Origin: a virus | Lineage: Duplodnaviria; Heunggongvirae; Uroviricota; Caudoviricetes | DNA: 33,504 nt | Direction: 5' to 3' (one strand) | IMG/VR virus record: IMGVR_UViG_2695420456_000021 | In this document: one piece after another, positions 1 through 33,504 of the stretch | Numbering within the stretch: position 1 is the first letter of the stretch | Layout: each line of letters starts with the position of its first letter | Made by a program: the position numbers and the translations under genes | The notes under the pieces: model-generated | Seen by the model: only the letters and a program-made list of their open reading frames with translations | Database searches by the model: none | Told to the model about the DNA's origin: nothing

Positions 1-318
1 ATGAAAAAGATAGCTGCTATATCATTAATTAGTATTTTTATTATGTCTGGTTGTGCTGTGCATAATGATGAGACAAGTATCGGTAAATTTGGTCTTGCAT
101 ATAAAAGTAATATTCAGCGTAAACTCGATAACCAATACTACACCGAAGCCGAAGCTTCTTTAGCCAGGGGCAGAATATCTGGTGCAGAAAATATAGTAAA
201 AAATGATGCAGCCCATTTCTGTGTTACTCAGGGCAAAAAAATGCAGATAGTTGACCTGAAGACAGAAGGTGCAGGATTACATGGCGTCGCTCGTCTGACA
301 TTCAAATGTGGAGAGTGA
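1..318 (+). CDS. yegR: Small putative lipoprotein (105 aa), host gene flanking the prophage on the left
   Basis: Complete ORF in the track. N-terminal hydrophobic signal ending in lipobox-like 'IMSGC'. Sequence and position opposite yegQ/cyaR match my recollection of E. coli yegR; identity not verified. Confidence 0.6.
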   Translation: MKKIAAISLISIFIMSGCAVHNDETSIGKFGLAYKSNIQRKLDNQYYTEAEASLARGRISGAENIVKNDAAHFCVTQGKKMQIVDLKTEGAGLHGVARLTFKCGE

Positions 319-413: not shown

Positions 414-475
414 ATGAAGGGAGATTCTATCGATGTGGTCAATGGAAGACGGTGACCAGGGATAGGGCTTATGCA

Positions 476-582: not shown

Positions 583-1596
583 TTACTCTACTGTGGACAC
601 TGTGTGGACACTCTCGGCCTCAGTACCACCTCTTAGCGGATTAAGAGAAATGGCGTCCTGAAGGTACTCTGGCGCAAAGTGAGCGTAAACCATAGTTTGC
701 TCAATCCGCGTGTGACCTAGTATCCGTTGTAGCGTGATAATACTTCCTCCATTAATCATGAAATGAGTGGCAAAGCTGTGCCTTAGTGCATGTGTGGCTT
801 GCCCCATTGGCAAATCCGGTTTTATTGCTTTCATTGTTCGTCTGAAGCGAGGGTAATCAGCATCAGGGAATAAAAAACCTCGTTTGTTATCCGCGATCAT
901 TTTGGCAACAGCCTCTGAGATCGGGACGGTGCGTGGTTTGTTTGTTTTCGTTTTAACAAACGTGACGCGGTTATGGATGATATTTTCTGCTTTCAAACGA
1001 GCTGCTTCTCCCCAACGTGCTCCAGTACTCAGGCAAAGAATCGCAATCTTTTTATTGTCGCCGTCAAGAGCAGCAAGCAGTAAGGCAATTTCTTCCTGCG
1101 TGAGATAGCCTGTGTCTGGTTTTTCCTCCTTAAGCCTTTTTGTCCCTCTGATAGGGTGCTCACCAAAGAATAACTCCGCTTCAATCAGGGCTGTAAACAT
1201 GCCGCTAATACATGTTAAATCACGATTGATACTCGAAGGTTTAATACCCTGACTTCTTCGGGTGGCGCAGTACTGGCTGATAAGCGATTTCGTAATTTGA
1301 AATGCGCATGGGTCATTCGTTATTTTTGTGAAGATTTCAATTTTTCCAAGATTAGATTTCCCATGCTCTTCGTGTTTACCCTTTAAATCCCACCAGATCT
1401 GTGTCAGCTCCGACAGACGTCGCTTGTCTGTTGGTTTTGATAGCCATTCTTTATTGTGGTGGTTGTACAACGTGTATTTCTCGAAAGCGACAGCTTCGCT
1501 TTTCTTATCAAACTTCCTACGGATGCGTTTTCCATTACGTCCAGTAGGGCGGATGTCCACTTCATATCGACCATCATCGAGTTTTTTGATTGCCAT
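583..1596 (-). CDS. int: Tyrosine integrase, P2 Int-like (337 aa)
   Basis: ORF track; same length as P2 Int; C-terminal catalytic-region motifs (HALRHSFAT ... LGH ... Y); adjacent to att core. Confidence 0.95.
   Translation of the reverse strand: MAIKKLDDGRYEVDIRPTGRNGKRIRRKFDKKSEAVAFEKYTLYNHHNKEWLSKPTDKRRLSELTQIWWDLKGKHEEHGKSNLGKIEIFTKITNDPCAFQITKSLISQYCATRRSQGIKPSSINRDLTCISGMFTALIEAELFFGEHPIRGTKRLKEEKPDTGYLTQEEIALLLAALDGDNKKIAILCLSTGARWGEAARLKAENIIHNRVTFVKTKTNKPRTVPISEAVAKMIADNKRGFLFPDADYPRFRRTMKAIKPDLPMGQATHALRHSFATHFMINGGSIITLQRILGHTRIEQTMVYAHFAPEYLQDAISLNPLRGGTEAESVHTVSTVE
592..610 (+). promoter_or_regulatory. Tandem TGTGGACA direct repeats, 11-bp period (putative Int arm-type binding sites, P' arm)
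   Basis: tgtggaca at 592-599 and 603-610; similar tandem pair (tgtggtca/tgtggac) on the opposite arm at 31913..31930. Confidence 0.4.
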
Positions 1597-1711: not shown

Positions 1712-2011
1712 TTAACCAGTCTTTTGACCGGAGTGGGGCGACGTTGTTTCGTTTTGCCCAAAGTGTGCGAGAGCGGGCGCAATTTGCCCGGACTCAGGAG
1801 CGATCTGATTGGTCATGAACCATAAAGTGTATTTGGTGAATTGTGGGGTCTGCAGGATGTTCATCATGACATCTGTTGGAGGTGTTGAACGACCACTTTC
1901 ATAGTAACTCAGCGTGCCATACGGAACCCCTGTTAAATCAGCAAGTTGTTGTCTGCTCAAATACTCTGATTTTCGCATTAAGACTATCTTCTCGCTTATC
2001 GTGTTTGACAT
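1712..2011 (-). CDS. C: Immunity repressor, P2 C-like (99 aa)
   Basis: ORF track; 99 aa as in P2 C; transcribed divergently from cox; HTH-like segment 'LSRQQLADLTGVPYGTLSYYE'. Confidence 0.85.
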   Translation of the reverse strand: MSNTISEKIVLMRKSEYLSRQQLADLTGVPYGTLSYYESGRSTPPTDVMMNILQTPQFTKYTLWFMTNQIAPESGQIAPALAHFGQNETTSPHSGQKTG

Positions 2012-2125: not shown

Positions 2126-2401
2126 ATGAGCAAGCAAGTAACACTCATGACTGATGCGATTCCTTATCAGGAGTTCGCAAAACTAATAGGAAAATCGACA
2201 GGAGCGGTTCGTCGGATGATCGATAAAGGAAAGCTGCCTGTAATTGATATGACCGATCCACAATCAGCTTCAGGTCGTGCAGGTGAATATTGGGTATACC
2301 TTCCGGCATGGAATAACGGACTAAAACTGGCTTATGAAAGCCGCCCTAAAGAGATTCGTGACGGCTGGTTGATGTGGTTAGGTCTCGGTGAACCACGTTA
2401 A
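2126..2401 (+). CDS. cox: Cox-like excisionase/transcriptional regulator (91 aa)
   Basis: ORF track; 91 aa as in P2 Cox; first gene of the rightward early operon opposite C. Confidence 0.85.
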   Translation: MSKQVTLMTDAIPYQEFAKLIGKSTGAVRRMIDKGKLPVIDMTDPQSASGRAGEYWVYLPAWNNGLKLAYESRPKEIRDGWLMWLGLGEPR

Positions 2402-3142: not shown

Positions 3143-3367
3143 ATGCATACAGTTTCTGAAAATCAGTGCGGTATATACGCATTACTGCTGCAACAGGCCA
3201 GAACCGAAGCACAGGCCGACGCTGCGACGCGCTTTTCTTCTCATCTTGACGCCATGATTCGCCACATCACAAAGGCGGAGTTATCCCGCGTGGAGATAGT
3301 CGAGCTGCTCAGTCAGGAGTCGGAAAAATTTCACAATATCGGATTGTCTCGTGGGGAGGTGCTTTGA
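3143..3367 (+). CDS. Hypothetical early-operon protein (P2 orf80 position)
   Basis: ORF track frame; ATG 3143 preceded by ggagaaa; stop overlaps next start (TGATG). Confidence 0.5.
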
Positions 3368-4165: not shown

Positions 4166-6230
4166 AGCCTCCGGGCGTTTTGTCCCTCCGTCAGCATTTG
4201 CCGCAGGCACCGGTAAGACGTTTACCGGTGCTTATGCATGGAACGCGCCACGCGAGGCCGTCGGGCGCGAAAGACCCCTTACACGTGACGAGATGCGTCA
4301 GGTGCAAGGTGTTTTATCCACGATTAACCGCCTGCCTTACTTTTTGCGTTCGCTGTTTACTTCACGCTATGACTACATCCGGCGCAATAAAAGCCCGGTG
4401 CACGGGTTTTATTTCCTCACATCCACTTTTCAGCGTCGTTTATGGCCGCGCATTGAGCGCGTGAATCAGCGCCATGAAATGAACACCGACGCGTCGTTGC
4501 TGTTTCTGGCAGAGCGTGGCCACTATGCGCGCCTGCCTGGAATGAATGACAAGGAGCTGAAAAAGTTTGCCGCCCGTATCTCATCGCAGCTTTTCATGAT
4601 GTATGAGGAACTCTGCGATGCATGGGTTGATGCGCATGGTGAAAAAGAATCGCTGTTTACGGATGAGGCGCAGGCTCACCTGTATGGTCATGTTGCTGGC
4701 GCTGCACGTGCTTTCAATATTTCCCCGCTCTACTGGAAAAAATACCGTAAAGGACAGATGACCACGAGGCAGGCATATTCTGCCATTGCCCGTCTGTTTA
4801 ACGATGAGTGGTGGATTAGTCAGCTTAAAGGCCAGCGTATGCGCTGGCATGAGGCGTTACTGATTGCTGTCGGGGAGGTCAATAAAGACCGTTCTCCTTA
4901 TGCCAGTAAACATGCCATTCGTGATGTGCGTGCGCGCCGCCAGGCAAATCTGGAATTTCTTAAATCGTGTGACCTTGAAAACAGGGAAACCGGCGAGCGC
5001 ATCGACCTTATCAGTAAGGTGATGGGCAGTATTTCTAATCCAGAAATTCGCCGGATGGAGCTGATGAACACCATTGCCGGTATTGAGCGTTACGCCGCCG
5101 CAGAGGGTGATGTGGGGATATTTATCACGCTTACCGCGCCGTCAAAGTATCACCCGACACGTCAGGTCGGAAAAGGCGAAAGTAAAACCGTCCAGCTAAA
5201 TCATGGCTGGAACGATGAGGCATTTAATCCAAAGGATGCGCAGCGTTATCTCTGCCGTATCTGGAGCCTGATGCGCACGGCATTCAAGGATAATGATTTA
5301 CAGGTCTACGGTTTGCGTGTCGTCGAGCCACACCACGACGGAACGCCGCACTGGCATATGATGCTTTTTTGTCATCCACGCCAGCGTAACCAGATTATCG
5401 AAACCATGCGTCGCTACGCGCTCAAAGAGGATGGCGACGAAAGAGGAGCTGCGCGAAACCGTTTTCAGGCAAAACACCTTAACCGGGGCGGTGCTGCGGG
5501 GTATATCGCGAAATACATTTCAAAAAATATCGACGGATATGCACTGGATGGTCAGCTCGATAATGATACCGGCAGACCGCTGAAAGACACTGCCGCGGCT
5601 GTTACCGCATGGGCGTCAACGTGGCGCATCCCGCAATTTAAAACGGTTGGCCTGCCGACAATGGGAGCTTACCGTGAACTACGCAAATTGCCTCGCGGCG
5701 TCAGTATTGCTGATGAGTTTGACGAACGCGTCGAGGCTGCTCGCGCTGCCGCAGACAGTGGTGATTTTGCGTTGTATATCAGCGCGCAGGGTGGGGCAAA
5801 TGTCCCGCGCGATTGTCAGACTGTCAGGGTTGCCCGTAGCCCGTCGGATGACGTTAACGAGTACGAGGAAGAAGTCGAGAGAGTGGTCGGCATTTACGCG
5901 CCGCATCTCGGCGCGCGTCATATTCATATCACCAGAACGACGGACTGGCGCATTGTGCCGAAAGTTCCGGTCGTTGAGCCTTTGACTTTAAAAAGCGGCA
6001 TCGCCGCGCCTCGGAGTCCTGTCAATAACTGTGGAAAGCTCACTGGTGGTGATACTTCGTTACCGGCTCCCACACCTTCTGAGCACGCCGCAGCAGTGTT
6101 GGATTTGATTGATATAGGGGTGGTTAGTTGGAATGATGCTGAGGTGATGACAGTTCTTAGGAAGAGGTTAAAAGATTACTCACGGGAATTGATGGTATTC
6201 AAGGGAAGGGCTAGCCAACGCCCAATCTGA
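4155..6230 (+). CDS. A: Rolling-circle replication initiator, P2 A-like (HUH endonuclease)
   Basis: HUH-like 'TPHWHMMLF' and tyrosine motif 'YIAKYISK'. Track start 4113 is a TTG; first in-frame ATG is 4155 (MAVKASGRF...). Start uncertain. Confidence 0.9.
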   Translation: MAVKASGRFVPPSAFAAGTGKTFTGAYAWNAPREAVGRERPLTRDEMRQVQGVLSTINRLPYFLRSLFTSRYDYIRRNKSPVHGFYFLTSTFQRRLWPRIERVNQRHEMNTDASLLFLAERGHYARLPGMNDKELKKFAARISSQLFMMYEELCDAWVDAHGEKESLFTDEAQAHLYGHVAGAARAFNISPLYWKKYRKGQMTTRQAYSAIARLFNDEWWISQLKGQRMRWHEALLIAVGEVNKDRSPYASKHAIRDVRARRQANLEFLKSCDLENRETGERIDLISKVMGSISNPEIRRMELMNTIAGIERYAAAEGDVGIFITLTAPSKYHPTRQVGKGESKTVQLNHGWNDEAFNPKDAQRYLCRIWSLMRTAFKDNDLQVYGLRVVEPHHDGTPHWHMMLFCHPRQRNQIIETMRRYALKEDGDERGAARNRFQAKHLNRGGAAGYIAKYISKNIDGYALDGQLDNDTGRPLKDTAAAVTAWASTWRIPQFKTVGLPTMGAYRELRKLPRGVSIADEFDERVEAARAAADSGDFALYISAQGGANVPRDCQTVRVARSPSDDVNEYEEEVERVVGIYAPHLGARHIHITRTTDWRIVPKVPVVEPLTLKSGIAAPRSPVNNCGKLTGGDTSLPAPTPSEHAAAVLDLIDIGVVSWNDAEVMTVLRKRLKDYSRELMVFKGRASQRPI
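6006..6025 (+). other. Candidate replication origin/nick site inside A (gcgcctcggagtcctgtcaa)
   Basis: From memory, P2/186-family ori lies in the 3' part of gene A with a sequence like this; not verified. Confidence 0.3.
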
Positions 6231-6402
6231 TTATGTTTTGTAATGATAAGTTAATGCTGAATGAGTGGCTCGCGCATAACCTTGCGGGAAAAAGAGCATA
6301 TTATGTACAGTTTTGAGGTTGGCTAGAGAGGATGGGCGAGATAGTTTGTGTTTGTGTGGGTTTGAGAAGTTTGATGCGCACATCAAAAATTGATACAACT
6401 GA

Positions 6403-6431
6403 TTGAAAAAATGATAAAAAAGCTGTTAAAT
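6403..6431 (+). promoter_or_regulatory. Putative sigma70 promoter for the cargo cassette (TTGAAA, 17-bp spacer, TTAAAT)
   Basis: Hexamers read from sequence about 25 bp upstream of ATG 6456; AT-rich context makes chance matches likely. Confidence 0.3.
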
Positions 6432-6455
6432 GCGTCAGTTTTCTAAGGGGGGAAG

Positions 6456-7586
6456 ATGAAAAAAATAACCAAGAGAGAAAGAGAGAGAGATATTTTACGA
6501 TCCTATTTACATCGTACAGGAAGAGATGTTGTATCTGCAGGGCGCTCTAAGATTAATCCTATTTCAAAAGCATCAAAAATAAATCGTTGGATAAATGCGC
6601 AAATTAAAGATGGATTAAATTGCGAAATAAGGAAAAATAGAGACCTTTTCCTTACTTTACCTAAAAAGATGAACTTTTCAAGTAATTACCATCGTACAAT
6701 GCAGGCCATACAAACGATTAGGCATCTTACGGGGCGGAAGATATTTAATAACCAATGTTATCGTCTTTGTTTTGTTGACTTTTCGAAGATTGAATATATT
6801 TCTGCATCTGCCGCATTGGTATTGACCGCGGAATTATCAAAATGGGATGATTCGGTAAGGCAACGCATTCGCCCAAAAGTGAAAACGTGGAATAAAAACA
6901 TACTCTCTCAATTTGATGAGTTGGGTTTTTTTGACTTATTTAGAAATAAAGATAGTTTTGAGCTTGAAAAAGAAAAGGAACCAAGTAATATCCGTTTTGT
7001 TAAGTATATGAAAGGACATTTACATGATGATGAAAAAACTCAGCATTTAAAAAAAGAAATAAAGCGTATTGTGGGAGAAGACCTTGGTAAATGGACTTTC
7101 CTATACAGTGGTTTGTCCGAAGCTATTACAAATGTTGTTCATCATGCTTATCCAGATAATAAAGGCTATCATGAGCATGATAAAAAATGGTATTTAACTG
7201 CTTCATATGATAGTTCAAGTAGAATAATAAAAGTAGTGTTTTATGATCAAGGTATTACAATTCCTGGGTCTTTGCCGGAATCTAAACTCCATGAAAAGGT
7301 TTTAAATTACCTTTCGAAGTTACCGCTTGCAGAACGAAAAAGAGATGAACAATTGTTAAAGGCTGCAGTTGAAATCAAACGTTCTAGTACGGGGGAAGAG
7401 GATCGGGGTAAAGGCTTGCAGGACTTGTTGGAGTTCATAAAGCAACGTGGTGAAGGTTATCTTTCAATTATGAGTGGTAAAGGCCTTTACAAATACTCAC
7501 AACATGATAAAAAATCTGAGGTAAAATCAGTAAGCTTCGCTCTGCCTGTTTGTGGTACACTTATAGTATGGAGTACAAAGCTATGA
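6456..7586 (+). CDS. Cargo protein 1 (376 aa): N-terminal STAS-like segment plus C-terminal GHKL/HATPase_c-like ATPase (anti-sigma-factor-kinase-like)
   Basis: RBS aagggggg before ATG. Motifs 'EAITNVVHHAY' (N-box-like), 'YDQGITIPG' (G1-like), 'DRGKGLQDL' (G2-like); N-terminal 'VDFSKIEYISASAALVL' resembles the STAS core. No Walker A. AT-rich. Confidence 0.75.
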   Translation: MKKITKRERERDILRSYLHRTGRDVVSAGRSKINPISKASKINRWINAQIKDGLNCEIRKNRDLFLTLPKKMNFSSNYHRTMQAIQTIRHLTGRKIFNNQCYRLCFVDFSKIEYISASAALVLTAELSKWDDSVRQRIRPKVKTWNKNILSQFDELGFFDLFRNKDSFELEKEKEPSNIRFVKYMKGHLHDDEKTQHLKKEIKRIVGEDLGKWTFLYSGLSEAITNVVHHAYPDNKGYHEHDKKWYLTASYDSSSRIIKVVFYDQGITIPGSLPESKLHEKVLNYLSKLPLAERKRDEQLLKAAVEIKRSSTGEEDRGKGLQDLLEFIKQRGEGYLSIMSGKGLYKYSQHDKKSEVKSVSFALPVCGTLIVWSTKL

Positions 7587-7972
7587 TTACTAGATTGGTT
7601 GCTAGCCTCATGAAAACATTGAAGATTGGTTCAGAGTTCTCGAAAGTTCCCAGAGGCCGCTATCGTACTGACGGGACAGCAAGTGGTGAACGGTTTAGAG
7701 AAGATTTCTTAAGGAAGCGTCTAAGCTTGCTTTCTGCTGGGGAAAAATTGCAGATAGTCATCGACGATGATGTCGAAGGATATGGTTCGTCTTTTTTGGT
7801 GGAGGGCTTTGCGGGCATGGTAAAATATGGATATATGCATGCCAATGAATTATTGTCTAAAATTGAAATTAAATATACTAATCCTGATTTTGATTTCTAT
7901 AAAAAGAAAATAGAACAATATATCAACGAGGCGCAGTTTAATTCGAAACGATATGAGCCAACAGTCGAATAA
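7583..7972 (+). CDS. Cargo protein 2 (129 aa): small STAS-like / DUF4325-like protein
   Basis: ATG 7583 overlaps the gene-1 stop as ATGA; ggag 8-9 nt upstream. Motif 'IVIDDDVEGYGSSFLVEGF'. Track start 7550 lacks an RBS. Confidence 0.65.
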   Translation: MITRLVASLMKTLKIGSEFSKVPRGRYRTDGTASGERFREDFLRKRLSLLSAGEKLQIVIDDDVEGYGSSFLVEGFAGMVKYGYMHANELLSKIEIKYTNPDFDFYKKKIEQYINEAQFNSKRYEPTVE

Positions 7973-8615
7973 TCCGATGTTTATTTTAGGTGAGAGTTCT
8001 GGTGAGTTCTCACCTAGTTTGCTTTTTATCAAGAAGGATAATGAAGAAGGCCTGAGTGCTACTCATGCAGTTAAGGATATTAATACGGTAATTGAAGTAG
8101 CTAGTTCTAATATTGTTGATGCAATACGGCATCCACCTGAAACGCCTATTTTATCGTCATCACTTATTACGGCTCTTATTAGTACTATTTGTGCGGCTAC
8201 TGCCGCATTTGCATATAATAAAGTCCATTGGCGTTCTGTTGTTAAACGGGAGACTAAAACCAAACTCCTGGAGAGTATTTCAGATGTGGTTAATGAGTTG
8301 CGTTCTGATGCTATTAGTTATTGGTTGAAGGGGTATTCAAAAAAGTCGGCGAAGTCTCTCTTAGAAGAGGAAATGAGAATTAAGGCGAGTTTAAATATAA
8401 TAAATTCGACTATAACAATATATGTTCAGCAAGAGTCGCGATGGAAAAGAAAGGATATTGAAGCTCAGTTAAGGGTTTTTCATGACGAACTTTTTGATAT
8501 TATAACAGGTGATGATTTTGAGTCTCAGGCAAGGAAGCAGGATAAGGCAAAGGTTTCTGCTATTTCTACAAAGTGTGTGGCTTTTCGCGTTTTATTAAAT
8601 ACCATCAAGTTTTAA
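7953..8615 (+). CDS. Cargo protein 3 (220 aa): predicted single-pass membrane protein, candidate effector
   Basis: Start overlaps the gene-2 3' end by 20 nt; hydrophobic stretch 'PILSSSLITALISTICAATAAFAY' (about residues 65-88); charged C-terminal region. Alternative start ATG 7977. Confidence 0.6.
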   Translation: MSQQSNNPMFILGESSGEFSPSLLFIKKDNEEGLSATHAVKDINTVIEVASSNIVDAIRHPPETPILSSSLITALISTICAATAAFAYNKVHWRSVVKRETKTKLLESISDVVNELRSDAISYWLKGYSKKSAKSLLEEEMRIKASLNIINSTITIYVQQESRWKRKDIEAQLRVFHDELFDIITGDDFESQARKQDKAKVSAISTKCVAFRVLLNTIKF

Positions 8616-8747
8616 GATAGCCATGCATGAGTTTGGTGCATGAAAATGCATGAGGTTTTACGAATTATTTTGGCTAAAATCAGCCTGCCCTGACTGGCTA
8701 CGGCAGATATCATGCACCTGCATTAAAACCGCCCCATGAAGCGGGCG

Positions 8748-8766
8748 GGCGAGGCGGGGAAAGCAC
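8748..8766. other. cos site (19-nt cohesive-end sequence ggcgaggcggggaaagcac)
   Basis: Matches the P2 cohesive-end sequence as I recall it; sits between the cargo island and Q as in P2. Confidence 0.6.
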
Positions 8767-18111: not shown

Positions 18112-18177
18112 TTGTGCCATTCCCGACACCTCATCGTCACATTGCCGCCGGTATGACCCGGCGGCATCCTTCCCGTT

Positions 18178-20603: not shown

Positions 20604-22853
20604 ATGAGCACAAAATTCAGAACCGTTATCACCACTGCCGGTGCAGCAAAGCTGGCAGCGGCAACCGCGCCGGGAGGGCGGAAGGTCAACATTACCACGA
20701 TGGCCGTCGGGGATGGCGGTGGTAAATTGCCTGTCCCGGATGCCGGACAGACCGGGCTTATCCACGAAGTCTGGCGACATGCGCTGAACAAAATCAGCCA
20801 GGACAAACGAAACAGTAATTATATTATCGCAGAGCTGGTTATTCCGCCGGAGGTGGGCGGTTTCTGGATGCGTGAGCTTGGCCTGTACGATGATGCTGGA
20901 ACGTTAATTGCCGTGGCGAACATGGCCGAAAGTTATAAGCCAGCTCTTGCCGAAGGCTCAGGGCGTTCGCAGACCTGTCGCATGGTCATCATCGTCAGCA
21001 GTGTGGCCTCAGTGGCGCTGACCATTGACACCACAACGGTGATGGCGACGCAGGATTACGTTGATGACAAAATTGCAGAGCATGAACAGTCACGACGTCA
21101 CCCGGACGCCTCGCTGACCGCAAAAGGTTTTACTCAGTTAAGCAATGCGACCAACAGCACGTCTGAAACACTGGCCGCAACGCCGAAAGCGGTTAAGGCC
21201 GCCTATGACCTGGCTAACGGGAAATACACTGCGCAGGATGCCACCACAGCGCGAAAAGGCCTTGTCCAGCTCAGTAGCGCCACCAACAGCACGTCTGAAA
21301 CGCTCGCCGCAACACCAAAAGCGGTAAAGGCAGCATATGACCTTGCTAACGGGAAATACACTGCACAGGACGCCACCACAGCGCGAAAAGGTCTTGTCCA
21401 GCTCAGTAGCGCCACCAACAGCGATTCTGAAACGCTTGCGGCAACGCCAAAGGCGGTAAAGGCAGCATATGACCTCGCTAACGGGAAATATACCGCACAG
21501 GATGCCACCACAGCGCGAAAAGGTCTTGTCCAGCTCAGTAGCGCCACCAACAGTGATTCTGAAACGCTGGCTGCAACACCAAAAGCGGTGAAGTCTGCCT
21601 ATGACAATGCTGAAAAACGTCTTCAGAAAGATCAGAACGGTGCGGATATTCCTGATAAAGGACGCTTCCTGAGTAACATTAATGTTTACAGCAAAGGTGA
21701 AGTGGATAAGAAAAAGGGAATGCGAAAGTATTCGTTTGCAGCCCCTGCAAATGTCGTTGCCGGGAAGTGGTATCCCGTTATCTTTCGCCGTGCTGCCAGC
21801 CTTTCAGGAGAAATGGCATCCCGCGTCGTTATTTCCACTGGTTGTTATAACAGCGATTATGTAATGAATAACTGCGAGTTTAATGGCATGGTTATGCCCG
21901 GAGGCTGGACTGATCGTGGTTCATATGCGGCAGGTTATTTCTGGACGTATCAGACTAATGAGCGTTCAATTCATTCCATTGTTACAAGCCTGAAAGATGA
22001 TGATGTATGTAGTGTTTTTTATGTTGAAGCCAGAGCTTTCCCTGTACAAATTCTTGCAGAGGAAGGGCTAACGGTTATTGTTCCGACAGAGGATTATGTC
22101 GTCGGTCAGACGACATATAAGTGGGGGGCAACTAATCCCGCTACAGAAAGCACGAACGCGCAGGCTATTCTGGATTTTAAAAATGGGCGCGGTTATTACT
22201 GCTCACATCCATTTATTTCCAGCCTTTCAGGAAATGCTGCAACAGCAACAAAGTTAGCGAACGCAAGAAATATTAATGGTGTCAGATTTGATGGCTCTGC
22301 CGATATAAATATTAATACACTGGTTTCCAGAAACCGTGTTACTGCATTAGGTGGGAGCGTAAAGGGGACACCAGGTATTCAGATGTATGAGGCATACAAC
22401 AATGGCTACCCAACAGCCTATGGTAATGTGCTTCATCTCACTGGTGTAACCGCAGTAGGAGAGGGTGAGTTACTTATTGGCTGGAGTGGAACCAGCGGTG
22501 CTCATGCTCCGGCATATATTCGCTCCCGACGAGATACCACAGATGCTAACTGGTCTGGATGGGCGCAACTATATACAACTGCTCATAAACCCTCAGCGGG
22601 AGATGTTGGTGCATACACCAAAGCTGAGTCAGATTCACGTTATGTGAGAGACATGCGGCTGGGCGGTGCATCTACATATAAACCAGCAAATAATGGTATT
22701 ACATGGACGCATCAGGCTCCGTCAGGTTGCGTATATACCGGCATTATTGTTCAGGATACCGGCTCAAACTCTGCCGATAACATTGGTGGCGTATATTACA
22801 GACCGGTGCAGAAATACATTAACGGGACATGGTATAACGTGGCGCAGGTATAA
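20604..22853 (+). CDS. H: Tail fiber protein, P2 H-like (749 aa) with internal tandem repeats and compositionally distinct C-terminal domain
   Basis: ORF track; conserved N-terminus (MSTKFRTVITTAGAAKLAAA...); repeats at about 21109-21600; GC drops after about 21650. Confidence 0.9.
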   Translation: MSTKFRTVITTAGAAKLAAATAPGGRKVNITTMAVGDGGGKLPVPDAGQTGLIHEVWRHALNKISQDKRNSNYIIAELVIPPEVGGFWMRELGLYDDAGTLIAVANMAESYKPALAEGSGRSQTCRMVIIVSSVASVALTIDTTTVMATQDYVDDKIAEHEQSRRHPDASLTAKGFTQLSNATNSTSETLAATPKAVKAAYDLANGKYTAQDATTARKGLVQLSSATNSTSETLAATPKAVKAAYDLANGKYTAQDATTARKGLVQLSSATNSDSETLAATPKAVKAAYDLANGKYTAQDATTARKGLVQLSSATNSDSETLAATPKAVKSAYDNAEKRLQKDQNGADIPDKGRFLSNINVYSKGEVDKKKGMRKYSFAAPANVVAGKWYPVIFRRAASLSGEMASRVVISTGCYNSDYVMNNCEFNGMVMPGGWTDRGSYAAGYFWTYQTNERSIHSIVTSLKDDDVCSVFYVEARAFPVQILAEEGLTVIVPTEDYVVGQTTYKWGATNPATESTNAQAILDFKNGRGYYCSHPFISSLSGNAATATKLANARNINGVRFDGSADININTLVSRNRVTALGGSVKGTPGIQMYEAYNNGYPTAYGNVLHLTGVTAVGEGELLIGWSGTSGAHAPAYIRSRRDTTDANWSGWAQLYTTAHKPSAGDVGAYTKAESDSRYVRDMRLGGASTYKPANNGITWTHQAPSGCVYTGIIVQDTGSNSADNIGGVYYRPVQKYINGTWYNVAQV
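21109..21600 (+). repeat. In-frame tandem repeat, 132-bp unit (44 aa), about 3.7 copies, within tail fiber gene H
   Basis: Unit boundaries at 21241, 21373, 21505; encoded repeat '...SSATNS(T/D)SETLAATPKAVKAAYDLANGKYTAQDATTARKGLVQL'. Confidence 0.85.
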
Positions 22854-23384: not shown

Positions 23385-23570
23385 GTTGTATGAACTCTGG
23401 TGTGAGCTTACATATCTATGGCACAGAGTAAAGCCTAATCTGACAGTCCGCTCTGTGCCAGGAGCGGAAGTTGCCAAGAGAACTCTTGCAAAGGTATGAT
23501 AACGTAGGTGCTAAATAATCATGAACCATAATAAATTAAAGGTTTTTAAGTTAACTCTATGGCGTTTCTT

Positions 23571-23599
23571 TTGCATGATGATTTTTTATTTATTATATA
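23571..23599 (+). promoter_or_regulatory. Putative sigma70 promoter (TTGCAT, 17-bp spacer, TATATA) upstream of the Z/fun-position cargo gene
   Basis: Hexamers read from sequence; AT-rich context. Confidence 0.3.
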
Positions 23600-23665
23600 A
23601 AGCTTAAATATACATAATATTTAGCTTCATTTTTTTAGGTATTTTAAAGATTTAGAGGAATGTGA

Positions 23666-25009
23666 ATGGCTACTTATGCTTCTTATTTACCAGAATCACA
23701 AATTATCACTTTGTGCAAGGATTTCCCAGCGTTTACTGATCCTGAAAAATTAGATGGATTCATTAATCCAGAACAGTTTGGCGTGTTTTTTCATGAGTGG
23801 ATTCATTTTCTTCACAATATTTCCACAATTAATGGGTTTTCTATTTTTTGCACGCAAAACATCCTGTGGTCTAATTTTCGCTGGGCAATGGACAATCAGG
23901 ATGTATGTCTTGGTTCAAATGACATGGATCCAGCACATATCGAATCAAACAAAAATTTTCTCAGTTACATTCGTTCCAATAGGAGTCTGCATAAATGTAA
24001 CTTACCTTATTATGTAAAAGTAAACGACTTGTATTTTGAGGATGCAATAATCCATGACATGGAGGTTGCTGACGGTAGTGTTATATGTACATCATTAATA
24101 AAGTGTAGAATTTCTCATTCTGAAAACAAATACGATCTAGATTTAGGCGTGCTTGAAATACTTGAATCCGCAGCTTTTATGCTTGAATGTAAGTGTATTA
24201 ATGCGATGAATGGCTTCCCTCAAGAGGCACCCTTTTATCCGTATCATACTATCAAAGGCTTAGCAGCGAAAATTGCTCCGTCATTAAATGATGAAGATAT
24301 TATTTGTTGTATGTTAGCTTCTTTGCAATCTAATAACCCTCCCCAAGTATTATTCAATCTACTACATAAATGTGAATTATTACATTCTGATTGTAGGTAT
24401 GAACATCTAGTGGCGGAGGTGAAAAAACAATTAAGCGAACAAGATCAAATAATAAGCGAGTCACTTAATCAAATAATTCAAATGATTCCTGTTGATGAAC
24501 CGATGGGAAACTTTATCAAGCTTACTCTTAACAGAATAAGTAACAATTTGAACTATAGAAAGCAAAAACCGTTTTTTGAGTTAGATATAATAAAAAAAAT
24601 AGCAGAAAAAACTGAGTTTATGAATGAAGTAATACAGAAATTCGGTGGTTGCACTATCATCCAGGTAAGACATGGAGATGATAATGAACCACAGCGTGAT
24701 ATTATGTATGACTTTTGCTTACCTGAAAATAATGATTCAATTTTATTTGGTTCGAAAATGCTACGCGCTTGTTTTCACTTTATATTTATTCACTTTAAAC
24801 TTTCTGGTGAAATCATGAAGACAGAAGAATTAAATATTTCGCCGCGTAATAAATGCCCATTTTATACTGTTTGCTGTGCATCAATTCGAGCTAATAATAG
24901 TAATATCTGCGCTGAATCCCCTTGGAAATCAATGTCTATTGATGACAACAAAGGTTGTTATTATGCAGCAGCGATTAAAGCTACTAACCCACCAGTTTTG
25001 CCGGATTAA
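23666..25009 (+). CDS. Cargo protein (447 aa) with N-terminal HExxH motif and Cys-rich C-terminal half; possible Zn-dependent hydrolase, function unknown
   Basis: RBS agagga before ATG; 'FFHEWIHFLH' at residues 41-50 (codons about 23792-23806); many Cys pairs; about 32% GC in a sampled line; occupies the P2 Z/fun position. Confidence 0.7.
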   Translation: MATYASYLPESQIITLCKDFPAFTDPEKLDGFINPEQFGVFFHEWIHFLHNISTINGFSIFCTQNILWSNFRWAMDNQDVCLGSNDMDPAHIESNKNFLSYIRSNRSLHKCNLPYYVKVNDLYFEDAIIHDMEVADGSVICTSLIKCRISHSENKYDLDLGVLEILESAAFMLECKCINAMNGFPQEAPFYPYHTIKGLAAKIAPSLNDEDIICCMLASLQSNNPPQVLFNLLHKCELLHSDCRYEHLVAEVKKQLSEQDQIISESLNQIIQMIPVDEPMGNFIKLTLNRISNNLNYRKQKPFFELDIIKKIAEKTEFMNEVIQKFGGCTIIQVRHGDDNEPQRDIMYDFCLPENNDSILFGSKMLRACFHFIFIHFKLSGEIMKTEELNISPRNKCPFYTVCCASIRANNSNICAESPWKSMSIDDNKGCYYAAAIKATNPPVLPD

Positions 25010-25145
25010 GAATAGTGTTCTTTCTGATAAATATAAAATATTTAAGGTCAGGTCTGCTTATCGCTCAAAGCAGACTGTCAGATTTGATAACGTTTGGGCT
25101 ATGTAAACCGTCAGTTGGAAAATGAGTGAGTGCAAGTCAGGACAG

Positions 25146-31651: not shown

Positions 31652-31870
31652 ATGTTTCATTGTCCTTTATGCCAGCATGCCGCACATGCGCGTACAAGTC
31701 GCTATATCACTGACACGACAAAAGAGCGTTATCACCAGTGCCAGAACGTGAATTGCAGCGCCACGTTCATCACTTATGAGTCGGTACAGCGATACATCGT
31801 AAAGCCGGGAGAAGTCCACGCCGTAAGGCCGCACCCGTTACCGTCAGGGCAGCAAATTATGTGGATGTAA
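31652..31870 (+). CDS. ogr: Zinc-finger late-gene transcriptional activator, Ogr-like (72 aa)
   Basis: Track ORF 31589..31870; start at ATG 31652 (MFHCPLCQHAAH...); CxxC...CxxxxC motif; last gene before attR. Confidence 0.9.
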   Translation: MFHCPLCQHAAHARTSRYITDTTKERYHQCQNVNCSATFITYESVQRYIVKPGEVHAVRPHPLPSGQQIMWM

Positions 31871-31883
31871 TTACAAACAGAAA

Positions 31884-31907
31884 GCCCCTCAGTCGAGGGG
31901 CTTTTTT
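31884..31907 (+). terminator. Intrinsic terminator after ogr (gcccctc-agtc-gaggggc then T6)
   Basis: Perfect 7-bp stem plus T-tract read from sequence. Confidence 0.65.
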
Positions 31908-31912
31908 GTCGA

Positions 31913-31930
31913 TGTGGTCAATGTGTGGAC
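31913..31930 (+). promoter_or_regulatory. Tandem tgtggtca / tgtggac repeats, 11-bp period (putative Int arm-type sites, P arm)
   Basis: Same motif, spacing and orientation as the pair at 592..610. Confidence 0.4.
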
Positions 31931-31970
31931 GTGACCAGAAATAAATCCTTTTATTTCATTGAATTACGCG

Positions 31971-31998
31971 TAAAAAATAAGCCCGTGTAAGGGAGATT
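31971..31998. repeat. attR core: 28-bp direct repeat, also the 3' end (terminator half plus U-tract) of cyaR
   Basis: Identical to 476..503. Confidence 0.75.
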
Positions 31999-32058
31999 AC
32001 ACAGGCTAAGGAGGTGGTTCCTGGTACAGCTAGCATTTTATGGGTTATGTTTTTCAGC
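31972..32058 (-). ncRNA. cyaR: CyaR (RyeE) small regulatory RNA, 87 nt, intact
   Basis: Reverse complement matches the E. coli CyaR sequence as I recall it (GCTGAAAAACATAACCCATAAAATGCTAGC ... CCTTACACGGGCTTATTTTTT); TGTGA half-site about 40 bp upstream, consistent with its CRP-dependent promoter. Confidence 0.85.
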
Positions 32059-32142
32059 GAAACGGATGATAACCTTAATAAATACAGCTGTATGTGATCG
32101 GTTTCTAAGAATTTTCCATCCGGGAAAAATAATCGAAATTAA

Positions 32143-33504
32143 TCACTTACCGTGGGGATTACGCGTGGTTTCCCCGGAGAAATTACGCATCAGCAGCGCG
32201 TAATTGAGCTCAAGATCCTGCGGGACCGGGAGCCACACAGTATAACCATCGCCTGGTGCTATCGGCATAGCTTCGCCTTTGGCGTTTTCCATGTGCTCAA
32301 GGGTAAAATTAATGTTGCCTTGCGGCGTCATCAGCTCAAGGCTGTCGCCAACGGAGAATTTATTTTTCACCGCTACCGCCGCGAGGTCCCCCTTGCGCTC
32401 ACCGGTAAACTCACCAACAAACTGCTGGCGGTCAGAAACTGAATAACCGTATTCGTAGTTCTGATAATCGTCGTGAGTATGACGACGCAGGAAACCTTCG
32501 GTATAGCCACGATGCGCCAGACCTTCCAGAGTTTCCAGCAGGCTGGTATCGAACGGTTTTCCCGCAGCGGCGTCATCGATAGCTTTGCGGTAAACCTGTG
32601 CGGTGCGTGCACAATAGTAGAAAGATTTGGTACGACCTTCGATTTTCAGCGAATGCACGCCCATTTTGGTCAGGCGTTCTACATGGGCGATGGCGCGCAG
32701 ATCTTTCGAGTTCATGATGTAAGTGCCGTGCTCATCTTCAAACGCGGTCATATACTCGCCCGGACGCTGGGCCTCTTCGATCATAAACACTTTGTCGGTT
32801 GGTGCGCCGATACCCAGCGTCGGCTCAACATTTTGCACCGGAATCGGCTCGTACTTGTGTACGATGTTGCCAACATCATCTTCTTTCCCTTCCTGGACGT
32901 TGTACTCCCAGCGGCAGGCGTTGGTGCAGGTGCCCTGGTTCGGGTCGCGCTTGTTGATATAGCCAGAGAGCAGGCAGCGACCGGAGTAGGCCATGCACAG
33001 CGCGCCGTGAACGAAGATCTCGATCTCCATATCCGGCACCTGATTGCGGATCTCTTCAATCTCTTCCAGCGACAGCTCGCGAGAGAGGATCACGCGGGTC
33101 AGGCCCATTTGCTGCCAGAATTTCACCGTCGCCCAGTTCACGGCGTTAGCCTGCACCGAAAGGTGGATCGGCATTTCAGGGAAGTGCTCACGCACCAGCA
33201 TAATCAGCCCTGGATCGGACATAATCAGCGCATCCGGCCCCATTTCCACCACCGGTTTCAGGTCACGGATAAAGGTTTTCAGCTTGGCGTTGTGCGGTGC
33301 AATGTTGACCACGACATAAAACTTTTTCCCCAGCGCGTGGGCTTCATTGATGCCGAGCTGAAGATTTTCGTGGTTGAATTCGTTGTTGCGCACACGCAGG
33401 GAATAACGCGGCTGGCCCGCATAAACAGCATCTGCGCCATAAGCGAAAGCGTAACGCATATTTTTCAGCGTTCCCGCCGGGGAAAGGAGTTCCGGTTTAA
33501 ACAT
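32143..33504 (-). CDS. yegQ: Peptidase U32-family protein YegQ (453 aa), host gene; start codon at the window edge
   Basis: ORF track; full-length ORF; position next to cyaR as in E. coli. Confidence 0.85.
   Translation of the reverse strand: MFKPELLSPAGTLKNMRYAFAYGADAVYAGQPRYSLRVRNNEFNHENLQLGINEAHALGKKFYVVVNIAPHNAKLKTFIRDLKPVVEMGPDALIMSDPGLIMLVREHFPEMPIHLSVQANAVNWATVKFWQQMGLTRVILSRELSLEEIEEIRNQVPDMEIEIFVHGALCMAYSGRCLLSGYINKRDPNQGTCTNACRWEYNVQEGKEDDVGNIVHKYEPIPVQNVEPTLGIGAPTDKVFMIEEAQRPGEYMTAFEDEHGTYIMNSKDLRAIAHVERLTKMGVHSLKIEGRTKSFYYCARTAQVYRKAIDDAAAGKPFDTSLLETLEGLAHRGYTEGFLRRHTHDDYQNYEYGYSVSDRQQFVGEFTGERKGDLAAVAVKNKFSVGDSLELMTPQGNINFTLEHMENAKGEAMPIAPGDGYTVWLPVPQDLELNYALLMRNFSGETTRNPHGK

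Follow-up and report, generated by a model that had tools for sequence, protein, structure and literature searches.

The cyaR locus and its host neighbors

The window, that is, the whole 33,504-nt stretch of DNA that was analyzed, begins and ends in host genes. On the left, yegR (1-318, plus strand) is 100% identical to YegR of Escherichia coli 55989, and its product matched no Pfam family. On the right, yegQ/trhP (32143-33504, minus strand; RefSeq name yegQ/trhP) codes for Peptidase_U32 domains and lies upstream of the sRNA gene cyaR, also called ryeE (31972-32058, minus strand). Between yegR and the element described below as a relic P arm, positions 380-415 can form a strong 11-bp hairpin (AGCACGATGCC...GGCATCGTGCT), not followed by a U-tract, at the place where P2 has its ogr terminator.

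The identity of cyaR was established by two comparisons. Rfam family RF00112 (CyaR_RyeE) matched the minus strand at 31975-32060 with 100.7 bits (E = 3e-19; gathering score, 47), and the match covered the full model, positions 1 to 85 of 85. The 87-nt gene annotated in E. coli K-12 MG1655 (b4438) is matched exactly at 31972-32058, and identity to K-12 extends from the cyaR 5′ end to position 32080, where the alignment ends. The original prediction had proposed an intact cyaR on the minus strand and a check against the reference sRNA; its coordinates proved exact, and the gene in the window is identical to K-12 cyaR. The transcript is predicted to fold into a seed hairpin and a terminator, the latter with an 11-bp stem and the U-tract (-15.5 kcal/mol, z = -6.7). 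The intrinsic terminator, which constitutes the Hfq-binding 3′ end, is intact and has the same sequence as in strains with an empty site. A scan of the window for tRNA and tmRNA genes found none, and there is thus no alternative RNA target in it.

An exact repeat overlaps the 3′ end of cyaR

Positions 476-503 and 31971-31998 of the window carry the same 28-mer, TAAAAAATAAGCCCGTGTAAGGGAGATT, on the plus strand in both cases, and these are its only exact copies. No further copy with up to two mismatches was found in the window, and 100 dinucleotide-preserving shuffles yielded no match. Identity between the two copies stops at both edges of the 28-mer. The repeat corresponds to the 27-nt attP core annotated in P2 (AF063097), AAAAAATAAGCCCGTGTAAGGGAGATT, plus one preceding T, a base also found in P2 and common to attP and attB here. 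The exact duplication that had been predicted at these coordinates was therefore confirmed, with two copies present and none expected from the shuffles. Its designation as a 28-bp att core holds for the length of the duplication but not for the core itself, as the canonical P2 core is 27 nt long; this core is identical at both prophage ends (477-503 and 31972-31998).

The right copy is the attR core and represents the 3′ end of cyaR. Gene and repeat overlap by 27 nt (31972-31998), which comprise the terminator loop, the 3′ half of the stem and the U-tract, in agreement with the initial reading of this copy as the terminator half. The left copy, the attL core, had been described as an orphan fragment next to int, and this description was borne out: it is located 79 nt from the int stop codon, and no 5′ cyaR sequence lies beside it. 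Read on the minus strand, it is predicted to form no cyaR terminator, just a small hairpin with adjacent host sequence. For annotation purposes, the prophage should be bounded at 476 and 31998, cyaR should be treated as intact, and no gene should be called at the left 28-mer.

Integrase, regulators and attachment sites

The phage genes closest to the two core copies are those of a P2-type element. The int gene (583-1596, minus strand) codes for a tyrosine integrase with the Pfam domains Int_N and Phage_integrase that is identical to P2 Int at 336 of 337 positions. The C immunity repressor gene (1712-2011, minus strand; HTH_3) has the length and position of P2 C, and cox (2126-2401, plus strand) codes for the excisionase and directionality factor (Pfam Phage_Cox, 161 bits). 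At the other end, the gene of the late-gene activator, ogr (31652-31870, plus strand; Pfam Ogr_Delta), aligns with P2 24036-24254 and is the last phage gene before attR.

In P2 (AF063097), the IHF site and P arm lie to one side of the core, and the opposite side has the Cox boxes, P′ arm and int. In a three-way alignment, positions 504-640, which follow the left copy, proved identical to the Cox/P′-arm/int side of P2. Positions 31860-31970, which precede the right copy, correspond to the P2 ogr terminator, P arm and IHF region, from which they differ by a few spacer substitutions. P2 features could thus be placed on the plus strand of the window. In attL, a putative Cox-binding region maps to 520-593 by gap-free alignment (P2 24399-24472), and the predicted Int-binding repeats of the P′ arm (cTGTGGACActgTGTGGACAc) to 591-617 (P2 24470-24496, identical). 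In attR, the ogr/F-operon intrinsic terminator (31881-31904; identical to the annotated P2 terminator 24265-24288) precedes the putative Int-binding repeats of the P arm (31909-31936; identical to P2 24293-24320) and the probable IHF-binding region (31940-31973; P2 24324-24357), the latter with a few substitutions in the spacer by the core. The order of the elements is B-core-Cox boxes-P′ arm-int in attL and ogr-terminator-P arm-IHF-core-B′ in attR. The presumed arm repeats of the window match tgTGGaCa, the arm-repeat consensus for P2-type integrases (PMC3448106). Judging from these sequences, the anatomy appears to be that of a heterobivalent tyrosine-integrase system.

Collinearity with P2 and cargo modules

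The P2-type (Peduovirus) prophage occupies 476-31998, both core copies included, and represents a phage genome of about 31.5 kb. By BLAST against the whole P2 genome (AF063097), it shows about 96 to 98% identity to P2 and the same order once P2 is circularly permuted. The 19-nt cohesive end sequence cos (8748-8766, plus strand) is an exact match to P2 cosL. The element as a whole is collinear with P2 at about 97% and has cos, but gene A departs from P2 at its C terminus (about 100 codons), where similarity ends at 6145; other deposited P2-like phages share this break after A. The ORF lengths are P2-like for Q, N, FI, T and D (344, 357, 396, 815 and 387 aa, respectively).

Departures from this collinearity are found in a few places. 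P2 orf30 is absent between S and V (18114-18177). The segment at 6146-8747 replaces the P2 orf91/tin/old module, and that at 23469-25052 replaces Z/fun. The C-terminal part of the tail-fiber gene H (21594-22798) is unrelated to its P2 counterpart at the DNA level, which likely reflects the exchange of a host-range module. Short internal repeats are found around 21254-21593.

We analyzed the four ORFs of the two cargo modules. The three ORFs of the 6146-8747 module are on the same strand. The first (6456-7586, 376 aa) matched phrog_3364, whose function is unassigned, the second (7550-7972, 140 aa) contains a STAS-like DUF4325 domain (Pfam), and the third (7953-8615, 220 aa) gave no match. The sole ORF of the 23469-25052 module (23666-25009, 447 aa) had phrog_15354 (E = 2e-274), also of unassigned function, as its one match. 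None of the four proteins matched PADLOC or NCBIfam, and the single DUF4325 domain was all that Pfam returned. A comparison of the cargo DNA with 50,697 deposited phage genomes gave nothing closely similar, save about 40 bp next to cos in the 6146-8747 module. Because the slot of this module holds anti-phage genes in P2, we regard the module as a candidate for an uncharacterized defense system.

The empty site in E. coli

We rebuilt the empty site by joining positions 1-503 of the window to positions 31999-32700, thereby removing the element and one core copy. The resulting 1205-nt sequence was found in one piece, with 100% identity over its entire length, at the yegR-cyaR-yegQ locus of many complete E. 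coli genomes, among them 55989, SE11 and O104:H4 outbreak strains. Thus, the comparison with the empty locus that accompanied the original prediction revealed no different junction. At least 80% of the rebuilt site was present in one place in 4565 of 5426 complete E. coli genomes. In the same set, the yegR-attL-int junction was found in 802 genomes and the D-ogr-attR-cyaR-yegQ junction in 753, which places a P2-Int-type prophage, or a sizeable remnant of one, at this site in approximately one-seventh of complete E. coli genomes.

These data bear on the possibility that the 28-mer recurs by chance, or as a terminator-like motif of a generic kind, and has nothing to do with integration. The sequence of the repeat does contain half a terminator. 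Nevertheless, such a repeat never arose in the 100 shuffles, and this one coincides with the P2 attP core, bounds exactly the block that is collinear with P2, and recreates real empty loci at 100% identity when the block is removed. We therefore hold this explanation to be hardly credible.

Direct repeats also flank many transposons, and the 28-mer might accordingly be the target-site duplication of a transposase, or the element might have been acquired by homologous recombination. At 28 nt, however, the repeat is far longer than typical target-site duplications, and it pre-exists as attP in free P2 DNA. No transposase was seen at either end of the element; rather, a P2-type tyrosine integrase adjoins attL, and the putative arm sites, IHF site and Cox boxes are in their canonical arrangement. 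Finally, identical junctions in about 800 genomes speak against both transposition and homologous recombination, and we consider an origin of this kind very improbable.

Integration of a P2-type phage into cyaR

We conclude that this is almost certainly a P2-type phage that Int inserted into the 3′ end of cyaR, between yegQ and yegR, through site-specific recombination. A temperate phage of about 31.5 kb would have recombined its attP core with the identical 27 to 28 nt at the 3′ end of the gene. In P2, integration is catalyzed by Int and IHF, and excision by Int, IHF and Cox. By analogy with known P2, Int and IHF would have joined attP and attB inside the core, and Int, IHF and Cox would perform the reverse reaction. 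An exchange within the shared core would leave one core at each junction, the exact crossover point being unreadable from two identical copies. At attR, the host-encoded 5′ part of cyaR would be fused to the core portion on the phage side, which is abutted by the IHF site and P arm. Since the core and the last 27 nt of cyaR are identical, the product would be an unchanged 87-nt gene, complete with terminator hairpin and U-tract. The second core copy would remain at attL as an orphan 3′ fragment by the Cox boxes, the P′ arm and int. The proposal that integration targets an sRNA gene and restores it with a phage-borne 3′ end is thus supported, as it follows from the geometry of attR.

Integration at cyaR might have occurred as proposed and the prophage might now be defective, unable to excise or to form particles. 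The divergent C-terminal 100 or so codons of gene A and the missing orf30 would fit with this, as would the replacement of two accessory modules and of the tail-fiber tip, and decay is common at the cyaR site, as exemplified by PR-X of K-12. On the other hand, the collinearity with P2, at about 97%, extends to int, C, cox, cos, both att sites with their predicted arm, IHF and Cox elements, and every structural operon, and Q, N, FI, T and D have kept P2-like lengths. The replaced modules fall in known nonessential slots of P2, and the break after A is not particular to this element, as it also occurs in other deposited P2-like phages. We thus find it unlikely that the prophage is defective. By extension from known P2, it may still be active today. 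P2 itself is not known to be SOS-inducible.

cyaR loci in other genera

A pattern scan for cyaR with one genome per species identified at least 120 loci across Enterobacterales. We examined 122 loci, 120 from the scan plus those of E. coli 55989 and K-12. The linkage of yegQ and cyaR was kept in 120 of the 122. In contrast with this, yegR was present only in E. coli among the 122 loci examined, which for the scan part means among the matches listed.

The distribution of cyaR makes it possible to evaluate a different view of the locus, in which cyaR is a phage-borne (moron) sRNA gene rather than a targeted host gene. The last 27 nt of cyaR are indeed also found in P2 DNA. Yet P2 has no more of the gene than those 27 nt, whereas genomes with an empty site contain the whole of it. 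Furthermore, the yegQ-cyaR linkage is kept across at least some 120 Enterobacterales species, and most of the species listed have neither P2-type Ogr, D or Int nor arm repeats by cyaR. The probability that cyaR came with the phage is therefore negligible, and the gene is best viewed as the target of integration.

Some of these loci show what appears to be a P2-like attR architecture next to cyaR, with a terminator, putative arm repeats (ATGTGGTCAATGTGTGGACA), an IHF-like element (GAAATAAATCCTTTTATTTCA) and the core. They belong to Citrobacter youngae, Citrobacter sp. Awk 4, Enterobacteriaceae bacterium G50, “Bacterium BS0013,” a Buttiauxella metagenome-assembled genome (MAG) and Enterobacter sp. 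UNJFSC 003 (loci L033, L049, L073, L082, L092, L105 and L117). Homologues of Ogr and D are present as well at three loci, those of two C. youngae genomes and of bacterium G50. Relics by cyaR were found in Salmonella enterica subsp. diarizonae and in E. albertii (L101 and L108). The core variants track the cyaR terminator of each host. At some loci, the core pairs imperfectly with the 5′ half of the stem, which the host encodes, leaving a G·U pair or a mismatch; this would be expected if the 3′ half were supplied by the phage.

One further locus, labelled Enterobacter hormaechei B56 (L019, 509-2500), has a yegQ 99% identical to that of E. coli, and its species label may be wrong. There, cyaR ends in an exact E. 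coli-type core, after which come two ORFs of 321 and 199 aa, located before yegS, neither of which matched Pfam. This locus is another variant occupant of the cyaR site, in place of the islet that carries yegR in E. coli.

A possible scar of an older phage at the empty site

The “bacterial” left flank of the prophage contains a putative relic of a P2-type P-arm Int-binding site, TCGATGTGGTCAATGgaagacgGTGACCAG (430-459, plus strand). Its comparison with the P arm of the prophage (31909-31938) gave matches at 15 of 15 and 8 of 8 positions, with no chance matches. The second arm repeat of the relic is degraded, and the IHF region is deleted. The same relic is present in E. coli with an empty site (55989; L002, 1931-1960) and in K-12.

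Escherichia sp. E1V33 (L054) has a different arrangement, in which cyaR is followed by approximately 75 nt and then by yegS. In E. coli, the homologous yegS-proximal flank is displaced by about 0.8 kb from cyaR, and the yegR islet is absent from E1V33. Right at the breakpoint, E. coli 55989 has the sequence AAAAAGTCAGTTCAAGTATGGAGGATT (L002, 1174-1200, outside the window), which is in register with the core and agrees with it at 18 of 27 positions. A match of this quality arises anywhere in the islet in 2% of shuffles. The extension of this sequence into the P′ side shows weak similarity, with a score that 18 of 1000 shuffles reach. The reading of AAAAAGTCAGTTCAAGTATGGAGGATT as a decayed attL core is suggestive only. 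With this reading, the order in the E. coli islet would be a decayed core copy at the ancestral breakpoint, yegR, the relic P arm and the intact core.

The sequence of cyaR itself is also informative. Over 84 nt of the gene, E. coli and E1V33 differ at two positions only, and both are inside the core (core alleles ACACGGGC and ACGCAGGC). We considered whether a U·G wobble in the E. coli terminator proves that its 3′ half is derived from a phage. This argument failed, because the stems of the variants are predicted to be equally stable (-15.5, -15.8 and -16.2 kcal/mol) and because single transitions could yield the wobble. The location of both differences inside the core is a stronger argument than the wobble.

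From these observations, together with the attR-like structures and relics by cyaR in other genera, we see an even chance that the “empty” attB of E. coli is the attR scar of a much older P2-like prophage, in which case that phage would have brought in the last 27 nt of cyaR as a single block. An ancient P2-like phage would have integrated at cyaR, rewritten its 3′ end and decayed to the yegR islet, and present-day P2-type phages would integrate into that older scar. If this is true, phages have long landed at cyaR and co-evolved with it, rewriting its terminator from time to time. We found no explicit description of the relic P arm or of the yegR islet in the literature, where they may still have been published.

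PR-X of K-12 forms yet another layer at this site. Its left boundary (L003, approximately 3310-3335, minus-strand reading) is a partial attL core, ...ATAAGCCCGTGTA, with one extra A in its A-run, and the interior of gene D (yegZ) adjoins it without any intervening sequence. The boundary corresponds to a deletion from inside the core into D.

Comparison with known integration systems

The cyaR site is presumably the classical P2 locI (Barreiro & Haggard-Ljungquist 1992). That P2-type phages integrate at cyaR is already known, on the basis of secondary citations and database annotation. In the K-12 annotation, the cryptic prophage PR-X (ogrK and yegZ, the D′ pseudogene) starts inside the 3′ end of cyaR. 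The cyaR RNA has been listed as the site occupied by three P2-type elements, Wphi2 in E. coli W, ogr-D′ in K-12 and P2*B in E. coli B (Archer 2011, PMC3032704), and ryeE was named as an earlier known phage target in E. coli with reference to Wassarman 2001 (Bobay 2013, PMC3603311). The general understanding of the system is consequently unchanged, as comparative studies in print and the K-12 annotation already document the relation between P2 and cyaR. The locus provides a clean example of a phage that lands in the terminator of a regulatory sRNA without damage to the gene. Some fresh value lies in the possible reading of the “empty” site as a palimpsest of earlier P2-like integrations, and in the covariation of core and terminator across genera.

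The element in the window closely resembles the P2-type elements known at this site, namely, P2 at its preferred E. coli site, Wphi2, P2*B and PR-X. It shares with them the core and the locus, between yegQ-cyaR and yegR, the Int protein (99.7% identity to P2), the layout of the predicted arm, IHF and Cox sites, and the orientation, with ogr next to cyaR. Relative to P2 itself, only the cargo differs: tin/old and Z/fun are replaced by unrelated genes, and the tail-fiber tip is different.

Other temperate phages, and also islands, use RNA genes in a similar manner. Phage 186 (tRNA-Ile), HP1 (tRNA-Leu) and Fels-2/SopEphi (ssrA) also have a tyrosine integrase and a core over the 3′ end of an RNA gene, and in these tRNA and tmRNA integrators, as here, phage DNA supplies a replacement 3′ end so that the gene stays functional (PMC3448106; PMC3603311). 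Unlike in those cases, the target here is an Hfq-dependent regulatory sRNA, and the overlap is the intrinsic terminator rather than the acceptor and T-arm region of a tRNA. Other sRNA genes, ryeB/sdsR in Salmonella and rybB in E. coli, also serve present-day phages as att sites, and sRNA loci of this kind are invaded repeatedly (PMC3333887; PMC3032704, Table 2; PMC3603311), but those cases involve other sRNAs and other integrase specificities.
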